A stretch of 23,838 nt of DNA from Candidatus Thorarchaeota archaeon (GCA_016839445.1 JAEOUG010000086.1:1-23838); one strand, 5' to 3'; positions 5,626 through 23,627 are shown, counted from the stretch's first letter. Made by a program: numbers and translations. The notes: generated by a model not told the origin, from the sequence alone.

Positions 5626-6810
5626 ATGTTCGCAATCGTCAATGGCACCATCATGTGCCCTGTCAATGGCAAGATAGAGAATGCTAGCATCGTCTTCGAC
5701 AAGAAGATCATTGCAGTTGGCAAGAATATCGACATCCCAAAGGACGCGAAGAAGATTGACGCCAACGGGAAGTACATCGTCCCTGGATTCATCGATGCCC
5801 ACACTCATCAAGGGCTCTTCGATGGATCAATCGGGTCCGCAGGATTGGACGGAAACGAGAGCACAAATCCAGTCACTCCGGAGATACGTGGGATCGACTC
5901 CTTCTATCCGTTCGAGCCCTCTCTCAAAGAAGTTGTGATGGGCGGCGTGACCTGCATAAACACAGGTCCCGGATCTGCAAACGTTATCTCAGGACAGGCC
6001 TTCGTCGTGAAGCCACTCGGGACCGGTGTTGTTGACGATATGATAGTCATGGCGCCGTCAGGCCTCAAGGTCGCCTTGGGTGAGAACCCGAAGCGTGTGT
6101 ACGGAGAACAGAAGAAGACACCCACAACCAGAATGGGTGTTGCCTCTCTGCTTAGGAAGACCTTCACTGACGGACAGAACTATCTCAATGAATGGCAGAA
6201 CTTCGGCGAGAAAGCACGCGCAGCCAAGGAGAATGGTGAAGCACCACCTGCAGCTCCCAAGCGGGACCTCGGAATGGAAGTCATCGCCAAGGTACTCAAG
6301 CGCGAGATACCACTTCACGCTCATGCGCACCGCGCGGATGACATAGCCACAATCATCAGAATCGCTGAAGAATTCAACCTCAGGCTTGTCCTCATTCACT
6401 GCACGGAAGGTCATAAGATTGCGAAGGCTATAGCCAAGTCGAAGGCACCTGCGGTTGTTGGTCCAACAATATACTGGGTAAGCAAGCCAGAAACACGAGA
6501 ACGCGGATTTGAGACCGCAGTTGCGTTGCACAAGGCCGGTGTCAAGGTCGCTCTGCAGACCGATTCACTCACGCCCATGCTTCACTTCCCACTTCTCCCA
6601 ATGTATGTAATCAAGCACGGGATGAAAGAAGACGATGCTCTGAAGTGCGTCACTATGAACCCTGCAGAGATACTCGACATTCAGGACAGAGTTGGCTCGC
6701 TGGAGCCAGGAAAGGATGCAGATGTGGTCCTCTGGTCAGGCCATCCATTCGATTTCTACAGCAAGGTCGAGCAAGTATTCATTGATGGGAAGTCCATCAA
6801 GTTTGACTGA
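5626..6810 (+). CDS. Metal-dependent amidohydrolase (TIM-barrel amidohydrolase superfamily)
   Basis: PGFIDAHTH (HxH), LKVALGENPK, HAHRADD, HCTEG, TD, NPA and GSLEPGKDAD. Confidence 0.9.
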   Translation: MFAIVNGTIMCPVNGKIENASIVFDKKIIAVGKNIDIPKDAKKIDANGKYIVPGFIDAHTHQGLFDGSIGSAGLDGNESTNPVTPEIRGIDSFYPFEPSLKEVVMGGVTCINTGPGSANVISGQAFVVKPLGTGVVDDMIVMAPSGLKVALGENPKRVYGEQKKTPTTRMGVASLLRKTFTDGQNYLNEWQNFGEKARAAKENGEAPPAAPKRDLGMEVIAKVLKREIPLHAHAHRADDIATIIRIAEEFNLRLVLIHCTEGHKIAKAIAKSKAPAVVGPTIYWVSKPETRERGFETAVALHKAGVKVALQTDSLTPMLHFPLLPMYVIKHGMKEDDALKCVTMNPAEILDIQDRVGSLEPGKDADVVLWSGHPFDFYSKVEQVFIDGKSIKFD

Positions 6811-20472: not shown

Positions 20473-20598
20473 GGCCGAGATAAATGTTCGGAACGAAACC
20501 TAGGCTCCGTTGTGCATATTGATGCATAACGATATGAAGCTTTGAAGCATATCGCTAATAAGAACGATTGGACATTGGTGTACAGAGGAGGAATTGCC

Positions 20599-22386
20599 AC
20601 GAGTAGAGTATTGCGAATCAACATGACGGATCTCTCACACAAGTGGGAAGACGTCAAGAAGGAGCACGCGGATCTCGCCGGCAGGGCATTCACCAGTACG
20701 GTAGTGTCTGAAGAAGTGGATCCGATGTGTCATCCCCTTCGAGAAAAGAACAAGATTGTCATATCCCCAGGACTACTAGCAGGAACCATGGCCCCTTCAT
20801 CAGGTAGGCTGAGCGTTGGTGCGAAGTCACCCTTGACAGGCGGCATCAAGGAGGCCAACGCAGGAGGGCTCACTGCGACACGACTGGCCAATATCGGTGT
20901 TCGCGGAATCATCATTGAAGGGATGCCCGAGGGTGATGACTGGTACAGCATTGTCATAGGGAAGGACAAGTGCGAAATAAAGAGAACCAACGACTATGCT
21001 GGGATTGGACTCTACGAACTCATCAAGAAGATATGGAAGGACTATCCCACAAAGCCTGGCATCATAGGCGCAGGGTTAGCAGGCCAGCGACTGTACAAGT
21101 GCGCAGGAGTCTTCGGCAACAACATCGAGAATTCCGATCCAGGCAGGTACGCAGGGAGAGGAGGACTTGGTGCGGTCTTCGGCTCGAAACGGATTGTTGC
21201 CATCATATCCGACGATACCGGAGGTTCCAGACCGGAGGCCAAGGAGAAAGAGCGGTTTGACGAAGCCAGGAAGGTGTTCGTGAACTCCCTCAATGACCAC
21301 GCGGTCACTGGGCGCCTGAAAGACAAGGACGGGAACCCCTATGGAGGCCTGAAGAACTACGGAACTAACATCCTTCAGAACATCCTGAGCGAAGCCGGCG
21401 GTCTTCCAACCAGAGGCTTTAGTTCGGGGAGATTCGACAAAGCGGCCAAGATCTCGGGAGAGGCAGTGCATGATCTTGTCGATAGGACGAAGGAGAAGTT
21501 CGGTGACAAGGCCGAAGGGAAGTACGGTCATGCATGTCACCCTGGCTGCATTATGGCTTGCTCCAATGTAGTCCCCTACGAGAAGACAGGCAAGCTCCAT
21601 GTTTCGCCCTTGGAGTACGAGTCGGCATGGGCCCTCGGCGCAAACCTCGGCATCGGGGAGCTCCACGATGTTGCAGAGCTCAATCGGCTGTGCAACGATA
21701 TCGGGTTGGACACTATTGAGGCAGGGAACACAATTGCGATGTTCATGGAAGCAGGGAAGATTCCCTTCGGAGATGGCAAGAAGGCGATCGAGCTTCTCAA
21801 GAAGGCCTACGATGAGAAATCAATAGAGGGGGCGCTTGTATGCTCTGGCACACTGACAGCCGGAGAAGCACTTGGGGTAACGAGAATACCTGTTGTGAAG
21901 GGACAGGCATTGCCGGCCTATGATCCCAGACCGATTAAGGGCATAGGAGTCACCTATGCAACAACCACCATGGGAGCAGACCACACAGCGGGTTACACCA
22001 TCGCCGCCGAGATTCTCGGAATCAAGGGCACGGTTACTGACCCAAGGAAGATCGAAAAGGCCGAGCTCTCCCAGGCGTTTCAGGCCACAACCGCCTACAT
22101 AGACTCCTCAGGTTACTGTCTGTTCATTGCATTCTGCGTCCTGGATGATGATGACGGATTCAAGGCGATGACAGACACTGTGGACGCCTTCTTGGGGAAG
22201 GCGGTGGATGTTACGGCGTATGGCAAGAAGGTGCTGAAGATGGAACGCGAGTTCAACAAGAAGGCAGGCTTCACTGAGAAGGATGACAGGCTGCCCGAGT
22301 TCTTCTACACCGAGAAGCTGCCGCCACACAACGTCGTCTTCGATGTCCCCGACGAAGAGCTGGATGCAGTATACAAGAACATGTAG
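20599..22386 (+). CDS. aor: Aldehyde:ferredoxin oxidoreductase (tungstopterin/[4Fe-4S], AOR family)
   Basis: KSPLTGGIKEANAGG, AGRGGLGAVFGSK, CHPGCIMAC, EYES, GLDTI, PAYDPR, GADH, GYCLF and DRLP. The start is uncertain: homology begins at ACG 20599; in-frame TTG/GTG occur at 20575/20578. Confidence 0.95.
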   Translation, partial: TSRVLRINMTDLSHKWEDVKKEHADLAGRAFTSTVVSEEVDPMCHPLREKNKIVISPGLLAGTMAPSSGRLSVGAKSPLTGGIKEANAGGLTATRLANIGVRGIIIEGMPEGDDWYSIVIGKDKCEIKRTNDYAGIGLYELIKKIWKDYPTKPGIIGAGLAGQRLYKCAGVFGNNIENSDPGRYAGRGGLGAVFGSKRIVAIISDDTGGSRPEAKEKERFDEARKVFVNSLNDHAVTGRLKDKDGNPYGGLKNYGTNILQNILSEAGGLPTRGFSSGRFDKAAKISGEAVHDLVDRTKEKFGDKAEGKYGHACHPGCIMACSNVVPYEKTGKLHVSPLEYESAWALGANLGIGELHDVAELNRLCNDIGLDTIEAGNTIAMFMEAGKIPFGDGKKAIELLKKAYDEKSIEGALVCSGTLTAGEALGVTRIPVVKGQALPAYDPRPIKGIGVTYATTTMGADHTAGYTIAAEILGIKGTVTDPRKIEKAELSQAFQATTAYIDSSGYCLFIAFCVLDDDDGFKAMTDTVDAFLGKAVDVTAYGKKVLKMEREFNKKAGFTEKDDRLPEFFYTEKLPPHNVVFDVPDEELDAVYKNM

Positions 22387-22483: not shown

Positions 22484-22807
22484 ATGGCTGACGACGACAT
22501 CGACGTGCATTTGTATGGGATGCTGAGGAAGCTCGTCAAGAACAGCAGACCCGATGAAGACACTGTACTGAAGATGAAGCATGTTCCTGGAGAGACCTTC
22601 GCACGTCTGATCGAGAGAATCGGACTGACGAAAGAGGATCTTGGAGACTGCTTTATCGATGGCACCTTGGCGAAGTCTGATGCTGTCATACCCAAGGGTG
22701 CGAGAGTGGGTCTGTTCCCATTCAACATGGTGCTCCTCTGTGGTGGTCAGCACCTGAAAGGCCATGGATACACACGTGATGATGTTGATGTGGACTACTA
22801 CAAGTGA
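22484..22807 (+). CDS. MoaD/ThiS-like beta-grasp (ubiquitin-like) protein with an internal CGG and 19-aa C-terminal extension
   Basis: IDVHLYGMLR, GETF..L...IGL, FIDG and G.RVGLFP match the MoaD/SAMP pattern. It continues FNMVLLCGG-QHLKGHGYTRDDVDVDYYK. Confidence 0.7.
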   Translation: MADDDIDVHLYGMLRKLVKNSRPDEDTVLKMKHVPGETFARLIERIGLTKEDLGDCFIDGTLAKSDAVIPKGARVGLFPFNMVLLCGGQHLKGHGYTRDDVDVDYYK

Positions 22808-22809
22808 TA

Positions 22810-23076
22810 ATGATGCAGGTAGATGTGAAGCTCTACGCCACACTTCGTCGGCTCGCGCCGAGAGGATTGGAGGTTGGCGAAGCATTCAGAGTCAAGTTTG
22901 ATGGGAACAAGGTCTCAGATCTGCTTCAATCGCTGAACATCAAGCCAGATCAAGCGAAGATCGTGATGTGCAACGGTGTGAGAATAGCGGGGCTCGATCA
23001 AGAACTCTCAGAGGGCGATCTTGTAGTAATCTTCCCTCCGGTGGGAGGCGGCTCAATAGACCTGTCAGCTATCTGA
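22810..23076 (+). CDS. MoaD/ThiS/SAMP family sulfur carrier (ubiquitin-like) with a 7-aa extension after GGG
   Basis: VDVKLYATLR, V.DLL..L.I, NG, L.EGD.V.IFPPVGGG, then SIDLSAI*. Lies downstream of aor, a context typical of MoaD. Confidence 0.88.
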   Translation: MMQVDVKLYATLRRLAPRGLEVGEAFRVKFDGNKVSDLLQSLNIKPDQAKIVMCNGVRIAGLDQELSEGDLVVIFPPVGGGSIDLSAI

Positions 23077-23090
23077 GGGAGTCGACTGCA

Positions 23091-23627
23091 ATGAGGGCAG
23101 GGTATTTTCTGATGCTTGTTGTCTTGGTGACAATTGCGCCCTCACCTCCGCCCAGCGTGTACGAACCACTAGCAGTGCACGGATTCACAATCGATGGATT
23201 GTCCTGGCAGTATCTCTCAGTAGTGTGTGACAAGAACGAGTTGCTCAGAGGGTCCTTCGAAGCGACCAGTGACGGTAGCCTATATCCAGGCGATGAACAG
23301 AAGTATGATGATTGGGTTCCCATCAGGATTGACTTCACAATTCTCTCTGCACCTGAGTTCGCCCTTCTTCAGGCGGGAGACTCCTCGACTCCACTCTTTG
23401 AGATGCATGATGTTTCCCAGGGATCATGGTCTCTGCGGATACCAGAGGCAGGTGAGTGGTTTCTTGTCTACTTCAATCCTACAATCTATTTTGTCCAGAT
23501 TGATGGGCATACGTCGCGTACTGGATTCAGTCTCTTGGTGGCTTCGCTGATAGTACTACTCCCACTAGGGGCGGCCCTTGCATTGGGAGGGCTGCTATGG
23601 AGCCGGAGAGGGCGGTTGATCAGCTAA
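23091..23627 (+). CDS. Type I membrane protein: signal peptide, beta-sandwich (GOLD/p24-like) ectodomain, C-terminal TM helix and short basic tail
   Basis: ATG 23091 begins MRAGYFLMLVVLVTIA (signal/anchor). A beta-rich region IDFTIL...GSWSLRIPEAGEWFLVYFN follows, then TM LLVASLIVLLPLGAALALGGLLW and tail SRRGRLIS. Confidence 0.7.
   Translation: MRAGYFLMLVVLVTIAPSPPPSVYEPLAVHGFTIDGLSWQYLSVVCDKNELLRGSFEATSDGSLYPGDEQKYDDWVPIRIDFTILSAPEFALLQAGDSSTPLFEMHDVSQGSWSLRIPEAGEWFLVYFNPTIYFVQIDGHTSRTGFSLLVASLIVLLPLGAALALGGLLWSRRGRLIS

Follow-up and report, generated by a model that had tools for sequence, protein, structure and literature searches.

In the 23,838-nucleotide contig GCA_016839445.1 JAEOUG010000086.1:1-23838 of Candidatus Thorarchaeota archaeon (the window, which is contig C50 of a 2.9-Mb assembly, 89.8% complete and with a contamination estimate of 6.45%), the gene of a tungsten aldehyde:ferredoxin oxidoreductase (AOR; aor) is followed on the + strand, after a gap of 97 nt, by two small genes for beta-grasp proteins, here called UBL1 and UBL2 (for ubiquitin-like), the second of which overlaps the stop codon of the first by 4 nt. 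Based on homologue searches, gene neighbourhoods and structure prediction, we consider it probable that aor-ubl1-ubl2 is a conserved module, in which UBL1 would be a non-conjugating accessory protein that docks on AOR and UBL2 a carrier dedicated to the same enzyme. An earlier note on this DNA, made from the sequence alone, had described two beta-grasp open reading frames (ORFs) behind aor, neither of them ending in Gly-Gly (GG), and had read them as protease-gated carriers or conjugated modifiers, with a metal-binding AOR accessory as the alternative for the first. Both ORFs are indeed present (UBL1 at 22484-22807 and UBL2 at 22804-23076), and the details read from them are all correct, namely FNMVLLCGG with a 19-residue tail and the positions of Cys56, Cys86, His90 and His94 in UBL1, and PPVGGG with seven further residues in UBL2. 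Since both proteins are conserved across their homologues (172 for UBL1 and 36 for UBL2 at E <= 0.001 in the database search), these are not chance ORFs; the named database relatives of the window's proteins are from Thorarchaeota or Promethearchaeota.

UBL1 passes no family cut-off: it scores 14.8 bits against the 23 required for Pfam Ub-Mut7C, does not match ThiS and reaches none of the NCBIfam families. It does model as a beta-grasp protein, as had been expected. In the AlphaFold2 (AF2) model, residues 6-80 have a predicted local distance difference test score (pLDDT) of about 86-94, with a core of about 90 and a whole-protein mean of 77.2 (predicted TM-score, pTM, 0.66), and residues 85-107 are modelled as disordered (pLDDT below 50 for 87-107). 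The best Foldseek matches in the PDB are SAMP1 (4hro; E 4e-3, probability 1.00, TM-score by target 0.66) and a MoaD-like protein of P. furiosus (1vjk; 4.6e-3), followed by Urm1, TtuB and MoaD, none of them at E <= 0.001. The matches in the ESM Atlas were all MoaD/ThiS-like clusters, at 0.90-0.92, and count as no more than a lead.

The family to which UBL1 belongs can be recognized by an LYG motif in strand 1, a C-terminal FP..M.LL motif and neighbouring AOR and MoaD-like genes, and UBL1 has all of these. Beside the Asgard archaea, the family occurs on metagenome contigs of the type named Chloroflexota. Its neighbourhood is kept in the Asgard archaea. We examined 65 Asgard loci, retrieved with two motifs taken from the UBL1 tail (so that the invariance of the tail among these loci is partly by construction), and found AOR in 58 of them and UBL2 in 59. 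AOR lies upstream in 45 loci, with the gene order aor-ubl1-ubl2, and downstream in 13, with the order ubl1-ubl2-aor. A second set, the best 80 among 460 relatives from metagenomes that were found with a scan motif built from a 9-sequence alignment of GG-less members, has AOR on the same strand in 67 cases; in 12 more the contig ends within 600 nt upstream, and one has room for the gene without having it. A MoaD-like gene stands beside the UBL1-like one in 65 of these 80 loci (before it in 35, after it in 30), with a free terminal GG in 63 and an extension in 2. Based on this metagenome synteny, a unit of AOR, a GG-less beta-grasp protein and a GG-ended MoaD is widespread, and UBL1 is the Asgard form of its AOR-linked, GG-less member. 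The two small proteins are even joined in natural fusions of a UBL1-like and a GG-ended MoaD domain, either of which can come first (P0172, P0177 and P0287; P0254 and P0263). Three long sequences were discarded in the course of this survey: P0309, an apparent fused form which merely has an over-called N-terminal extension, and the profile hits P0164 and P0239, which are repeat junk.

Within the Asgard proteins, conservation extends from the core to the very end of the chain. In the alignment of 45 UBL1 sequences, the invariant core columns are L10, Y11, G12, T27, D55-C56-F57, G60, R74, F78-P79, N81-M82, L84 and C86, and the invariant tail columns are G87, G88, Q89, K92, H94, T97 and Y106; with six more positions, 13 of the 21 tail positions are at least 90% conserved, so that the tail is as strongly conserved as the core. 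Both features whose conservation had been in question, the tail and the synteny with aor, are thus kept in the Asgard lineages. In a six-frame translation of the genome, the tail motif occurs only in UBL1 and in one paralogue (G000:C5:14355-14627; in locus L005 at 1432-1713), which is 52% identical to UBL1 over residues 8-98. This paralogue keeps HLYG, RPDEDT, GDCFING and FPFNM.L, the motifs of the predicted interface with AOR (described below), ends in LIDGG plus a different 11-residue tail, and has no adjoining AOR. A PadR-like regulator and an FAD-linked oxidase are encoded next to it, and the type is kept in relatives (P0157, P0158). Additionally, in five Heimdall/Hod-type loci (L061, L063, L066, L067 and L069) UBL1 is immediately preceded by a third beta-grasp gene (about 5670-5950), whose product is 32-37% identical to UBL1 and ends in ...LIDGGLY[LI]KKWK[DH], a much shorter tail.

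The neighbouring enzyme is clearly a tungsten AOR: its product covers both Pfam domains (AFOR_N, 2.8e-51; AFOR_C, 2e-70), is related to the PDB entries 9mqx, 1aor and 8c0z at 1e-72 to 1e-66, and has the cluster cysteines C312, C316, C320 and C506, which are invariant in 34 AOR sequences and agree with the alignment to 1aor. The residue numbers given below for the AOR interface count from a chain starting at 20602. In the relatives L009, L013, L015 and L060, the stretch equivalent to 20542-20601 is similar at the protein level, yet it contains stop codons. Because the relatives have stops upstream of the equivalent position, the true start of aor should be near residue 21 of the longest ORF, and the TTG at 20542 probably over-extends the gene by about 20 codons.

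The complex of AOR and UBL1 was predicted from 34 AOR and 45 UBL1 sequences that we had aligned ourselves, in three runs accompanied by three controls. The interface score ipSAE was 0.90, 0.89 and 0.90, and 0.00 for the best control; the mark applied to this score is passed by 58 of 80 solved complexes and by 2 of 110 mismatched pairs, counts that carry over only approximately to alignments of our own making. The runs share at least 61% of their contacts (112-123 in number), with a partner pLDDT of at least 75. Since the UBL1 profile matches no PDB chain at E <= 10, a remembered complex is unlikely to be the cause of the high score. The prediction, which had been proposed as a check, yields a confident interface and supports the binding of UBL1 to AOR. 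On the UBL1 side the predicted interface consists of residues 9, 11-13, 22-26, 55, 57, 59-62, 76, 78 and 80-86, and coincides with the invariant columns of the family. On the AOR side it consists of residues 234-235, scattered positions in 245-266 and 282-292, and residues 354, 448, 508, 510-511 and 575-576. It includes the CLFIAF motif, the Pro-His of LPPHN and the end of an insert, specific to Asgard AORs, that precedes the GLKNYGT loop.

These AOR features have a distribution of their own. The genome encodes at least 10 AOR-family proteins, and CLFIAF, LPPH and the insert before GLKNYGT are missing from the nine AOR paralogues of the same genome, as they are, by alignment, from the solved AORs. 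CLFIAF and LPPHN are common to 34 of the 35 full-length AORs that stand beside GG-less ubiquitin-like proteins, the exception being the AOR of locus L078 (2953-4728), which has neither and lies beside the GG-less protein P0196; this locus has MoaD-like matches on both sides of P0196. The structure predictor has no part in this co-variation, which fits a docking surface peculiar to this clade. The insert and the UBL1 tail, moreover, are both confined to Asgard archaea and co-occur; in the model, N81 contacts the end of the insert, along which the tail may run.

In the mechanism that we favour, UBL1 would dock non-covalently on the catalytic AOR subunit without using a C-terminal Gly-Gly, through strand 1 (HLYG), the RPDEDT loop, the GDCF-NG turn and the C-terminal FPFNMVLLC segment, on a surface that would exist only in one AOR clade. 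We infer an accessory role specific to this enzyme, either in its maturation or activation or as a small subunit. The Asgard tail, with its GG, His-rich stretch and aromatic end, would be part of the working protein and would probably continue along the AOR insert.

The last of these options has a stronger form, in which UBL1 is a permanent structural or regulatory subunit of this AOR clade, covering for instance the side of the electron partner or of substrate entry, and no transient maturation factor at all. The very confident and extensive predicted interface would suit it, as would the co-variation of AOR at the predicted surface, the position of the contacts next to the fourth cluster cysteine in the sequence and the strong conservation of the UBL1 core motifs. 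We nevertheless regard it as improbable, since the constant linkage to GG-ended MoaD proteins, and the fusions with them, point to cofactor chemistry and not to pure structure, and since the MoaD-like proteins of Aromatoleum, discussed below, are described as absent from the purified enzyme in the part of PMC6365974 available to us.

A second possibility is that UBL1 is a metal-binding protein, with Cys56, Cys86, His90 and His94 as ligands. In the Thorarchaeota-type alignment each of the four is either invariant or conserved to 90% or more, and His, Asp and Tyr abound in the tail. The ligands do not travel together, however: Heimdall/Hod-type proteins keep the LLCGGQHLKGHG stretch, Cys86 and the His pair, but show Glu-Ile, Glu-Met or Glu-Ser where UBL1 has Asp-Cys56; other members have Asp or Tyr instead of Cys86 while retaining Cys56 or the two histidines; and the GG-less members have neither cysteine. 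This makes a metal-binding UBL1 hardly credible, and judged by this pattern of substitution an intramolecular site with four ligands is unlikely. Any metal site is more likely to be intermolecular, because residues 55 and 57 and Cys86 lie at the predicted AOR interface; in the model, AOR His290 or His576 would be possible partners. Thus, from the alternative offered by the earlier note, the non-conjugating AOR accessory is favoured by the predicted complex and the synteny, and the metal site is not, Cys56 and Cys86 not being kept together.

The Gly-Gly of UBL1 deserves separate treatment, as it bears on the reading in which both proteins are precursors: a JAMM-type protease would cut after GG88 in UBL1 and after GGG83 in UBL2, and E1 adenylation would then turn them into sulfur carriers or into modifiers of AOR or its cofactor. 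The motif is invariant in 45 of 45 Asgard sequences of the alignment and is kept in the C5 and Heimdall second copies despite their different tails; moreover, some bacterial members of the family end exactly at the Asgard GG position. In UBL1, unlike in MoaD and ThiS with their conserved terminal GG, it is internal and followed by 19 residues. Conservation of the GG also stops at the Asgard border: no GG occurs within the last 28 residues of 77 of the 80 metagenome relatives described above (which had been scanned for with a GG-less motif), and the aligned position is Ser-Trp, Arg-Gln or Ala-Glu in other members. A profile search free of this motif bias, over 1.84 billion representatives, gave 134 hits, in which the Asgard members show [LI][LI][CD]GG followed by variable tails and many others have no GG at all, ending in M.LLYV, M.LLVV or M.LLYKWYF...; GG-less members with a name are from Chloroflexota and Dehalococcoidales. 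Additionally, the Asgard UBL1 tail reads as a functional segment and not as a propeptide, because it is conserved, whereas the true cap (that of UBL2, described below) varies in length and sequence. In the Asgard-type locus L064 the tail even serves as the linker of an in-frame fusion of UBL1 to UBL2, although this is a single record in which an assembly error is possible.

UBL2 is a more conventional protein. It matches Pfam ThiS (PF02597) over profile positions 1-76 of 76 with 37 bits (cut-off 22.5; E 5.2e-9), the match stopping exactly at residue 83, the last Gly, and it matches NCBIfam moaD_arch at 9.8e-10, under the cut-off. As homologues begin with M.V.VKLYATL, the ATG at 22813 (giving 87 residues) is a likelier start than the GTG. 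It would be a MoaD-type sulfur carrier dedicated to AOR, and what sets it apart is its lack of a free C-terminal GG, seven residues following the GGG. Among the database homologues, 29 of 36 stop at the GG and 7 (the query included) are extended by 1-11 unrelated residues; the genomic copies from the 59 Asgard loci behave likewise, 44 of 61 stopping at the GG and 17 carrying between 1 and about 20 further residues. The genome's other ThiS/MoaD-type genes (on contigs C145, C97 and C34) end in a free GG. Tandem duplicates of UBL2 occur in two Thorarchaeota-type loci (L038, 5386-6004; L046, 3943-4618), both copies with a free GGG. The cap is thus genuine and has recurred, but it is sporadic and not conserved. 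The earlier note had allowed that the extension might be an error or a recent stop loss if close relatives stopped right after the GGG, which most relatives do; the closest homologue (78% identity) does not, and carries a different extension of four residues.

Because its Gly-Gly is capped by seven unconserved residues, UBL2 must be trimmed before adenylation by an E1, if it is to work as a carrier. The extension could also be neutral drift or a recent shift of the stop codon, in which case UBL2 would be inactive as a carrier, or trimmed by unspecific exopeptidases, and there would be no regulatory gate. The want of conservation, the scattered occurrence and the rarity of extensions in the GG-less-type loci (2 of 65) all agree with drift. 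Against it, about a quarter of the Asgard copies are capped, the nearest relative among them, and the rest of the protein is conserved. As the remainder of UBL2 stays conserved in spite of recurrent caps, we suggest that the cap is tolerated through its removal, and drift seems to us a possible but less convincing account.

The enzymes that such processing would need were looked for in the genome, as the earlier note had advised, and both kinds are present on contigs other than that of the module: two ThiF-type E1 genes (contigs C61 and C46) and one stand-alone JAMM peptidase of 141 residues with the metal motif HSHP...S..D (contig C27), which would be the candidate for trimming UBL2. No eukaryote-type JAB domain (PF01398) was found, and the window holds neither an E1 nor a deconjugating peptidase of a linked ubiquitin-type conjugation set (E2 was not searched for). 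The JAMM and the E1-like genes, and the proposal of Iyer et al. that fused ThiS/MoaD proteins have their C-terminus released by JAB peptidases (in the part of PMC1779556 at hand), would suit a precursor role of both proteins. The unlinked position of the JAMM and E1 genes tells against it, as do the missing GG of the wider family and the conserved UBL1 tail, and we hold it to be very unlikely. What survives of the protease-gated GG carriers is at most UBL2 with its sporadic cap: protease-gated conjugation is unlikely for UBL1, and for UBL2 possible but unremarkable.

The cofactor genes of the genome raise a different question. MoaE, MoaC, the C-domain of MoaA and MoeA_N were not found in the 89.8%-complete assembly. 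In relatives of the genus, moa genes are clustered (for example in G004:C53); MoaE and MoaC occur in the same 8 of 18 relative genomes, and MoeA_N also in 8 of 18, seven of these being shared. MoaE was not found in 7 of 10 relatives with a full-length UBL1, one of them 97% complete. The missing genes could mean salvage of the cofactor or of a precursor, or a locus that bins poorly. One might also imagine that UBL1 is an adaptor on AOR, which positions the thiocarboxylate of UBL2 for sulfur transfer to the already bound tungsten cofactor, that is, for activation in place and not for molybdopterin synthesis. In the fused relatives, the tail would tether UBL2 to UBL1. This reading we rate as unlikely. 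If true, the adaptor would explain why the pair is retained where MoaA, MoaC, MoaE and MoeA are not found, why the Asgard tail combines a GG with histidines (possibly as a second, JAMM-gated state), and why the aorDE genes of Aromatoleum raise the activity per tungsten about tenfold without more tungsten.

Several observations weigh against the module as we propose it, with a docking accessory and a dedicated carrier. The complex of AOR and UBL1 is a prediction and not a measurement, and the tail (87-107) lies outside its confident interface, its role being our inference. Every Asgard member and paralogue seen has the GG, an invariance that a purely structural role would not obviously require. 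AF2 models of the natural UBL1-UBL2 fusions (10-sequence alignment) show two good domains with undefined packing (pTM 0.43; linker pLDDT < 50). A classical role of UBL2 in molybdopterin synthase would have no visible partner, as the assembly yielded no MoaE, MoaC, MoaA C-domain or MoeA. Finally, UBL1 and UBL2 are likened to the Aromatoleum proteins AorD and AorE by description and not by sequence.

The coordinates of the module and of its parts are collected in Table 1, together with one ORF further downstream. This ORF is kept in the same place only in the four closest loci (L009, L011, L014 and L016; tblastn, 32-37%). A second copy, 86.5% identical, stands at the start of contig C136 (G000:C136:37-570), and is either a duplication or a sign of strain heterogeneity in the bin.

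Table 1. Features of the aor-ubl1-ubl2 region, in positions of the window.
Feature	Coordinates	Strand	Basis
aor, tungsten aldehyde:ferredoxin oxidoreductase of a distinct clade	20542..22386 (longest ORF)	+	Pfam AFOR_N, AFOR_C
AOR segment, residues 234-292, with most predicted UBL1 contacts; holds the Asgard-specific insert (21313-21342)	21301..21477	+	interface list
AOR residues 508-511 (CLFIAF signature), directly after the fourth cluster cysteine; predicted contacts 508, 510-511	22123..22134	+	interface, paralogue comparison
AOR residues 575-576, Pro-His of LPPHN, clade signature and predicted UBL1 contact	22324..22329	+	interface, paralogue comparison
UBL1, 107 aa, beta-grasp protein of an AOR-linked, generally GG-less family	22484..22807	+	homologues, fold, complex prediction
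UBL1 residues 80-86 (FNMVLLC), family-wide M.LL motif, in the confident predicted AOR interface	22721..22741	+	alignments, complex prediction
UBL1 residues 87-107, Asgard-specific GG and conserved tail, disordered in the solo model	22742..22804	+	alignment, pLDDT < 50
UBL2, AOR-linked MoaD/ThiS-family protein of sulfur-carrier type, 90 aa from GTG	22804..23076	+	Pfam ThiS
UBL2 extension of 7 residues beyond GGG	23053..23073	+	Pfam profile ends at residue 83; absent from most homologues
Downstream ORF, 178 aa, hydrophobic ends	23091..23627	+	no Pfam family; module membership doubtful

As far as is known, non-activated acids are reduced by no enzymes other than the tungsten AORs. The biotechnological interest in these enzymes is rising, and what limits their recombinant production is the still obscure insertion and activation of the cofactor. 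A widespread, enzyme-specific pair of ubiquitin-fold proteins, one of them a predicted clamp on AOR, would offer a testable handle on this step and hints at what AorD and AorE may do. The UBL1 family also holds a caution for work on the evolution of ubiquitin: the internal, invariant Gly-Gly of the Asgard proteins resembles a conjugation handle, yet by the history of the family it arose among non-conjugating partners of an enzyme. What is new here is the predicted docking on AOR with its clade-specific surface, the conserved, Asgard-specific GG-tail and the distribution of the UBL2 cap; MoaD genes adjoining aor, to which type UBL2 belongs, have been known since 2006, and the UBL1 family is little studied.

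A further comparison is with ubiquitin-like precursors that are trimmed by JAMM or JAB peptidases, as in the archaeal SAMP/JAMM systems. With such precursors UBL2 shares a short cap beyond the GG, in a genome with a stand-alone JAMM; it differs from them in that the JAMM is unlinked to the module and in that most UBL2 orthologues need no trimming. The available part of Iyer et al. (PMC1779556) also lists siderophore operons with a ThiS/MoaD-like PdtH and a JAB peptidase, PdtG. To Pfam Ub-Mut7C (PF14451) both UBL1 and UBL2 show a weak, sub-threshold match, and some homologues carry this label in precomputed annotation; unlike in that family, the Mut7-C nuclease domain is absent, and the UBL1 score stays well under the cut-off given above.

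A beta-grasp protein whose extended C-terminal segment docks on a partner is familiar from the MoaD-MoaE molybdopterin synthase, and UBL1 would resemble it in this respect (fold matches to the MoaD of 1fm0/1nvi and to 1vjk). The predicted partner of UBL1 is AOR, however, UBL1 has no terminal GG, and MoaE was not found in the assembly. Closer in genomic setting are the MoaD genes strictly adjacent to aor, which Iyer, Burroughs and Aravind described in 2006 as a "tungsten cofactor biosynthesis" neighbourhood (PMC1779556, as far as available), and which return in the portions at hand of Makarova and Koonin 2010 (PMC2948915) and, as UblC TK1065 of Thermococcus kodakarensis, of PMC11323500. UBL2 is likewise a MoaD-family protein strictly adjoining aor, with neither MoeB nor MoaE in the AOR neighbourhood; unlike those proteins it is here capped by seven residues, and the accessible text of these papers describes a single GG-ended MoaD without a second, GG-less beta-grasp partner. 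In the literature on AOR with MoaD-like or beta-grasp proteins and on aorD/aorE, we found no description of a GG-less beta-grasp protein that binds AOR.

The most instructive parallel comes from Aromatoleum aromaticum EbN1, where two small MoaD-like genes, aorD and aorE, stand directly behind the tungsten AOR genes aorABC, just as ubl1 and ubl2 stand behind aor; their products are regarded as putative maturation factors of the tungsten cofactor (PMC6365974, in part). The systems differ in that the Aromatoleum enzyme is the three-subunit AorABC, and the Asgard GG-plus-tail is not known there; neither PMC6365974 nor PMC9295118, in the portions available, reports binding of AorD or AorE to AorB. 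According to Table 1 of PMC9295118 (the part of that source used here), recombinant AOR from aorABC has 4.5 U/mg at a tungsten content of 1.06, and from aorABCDE 16 U/mg at 0.39, rising to 85 U/mg at 1.52 with added tungstate. In our own reading of that table, the activity per tungsten thus increases about tenfold with aorDE, which points to activation or correct insertion of the cofactor and not to its supply, and would be the kind of enzyme-specific service that we propose for UBL1 and UBL2.

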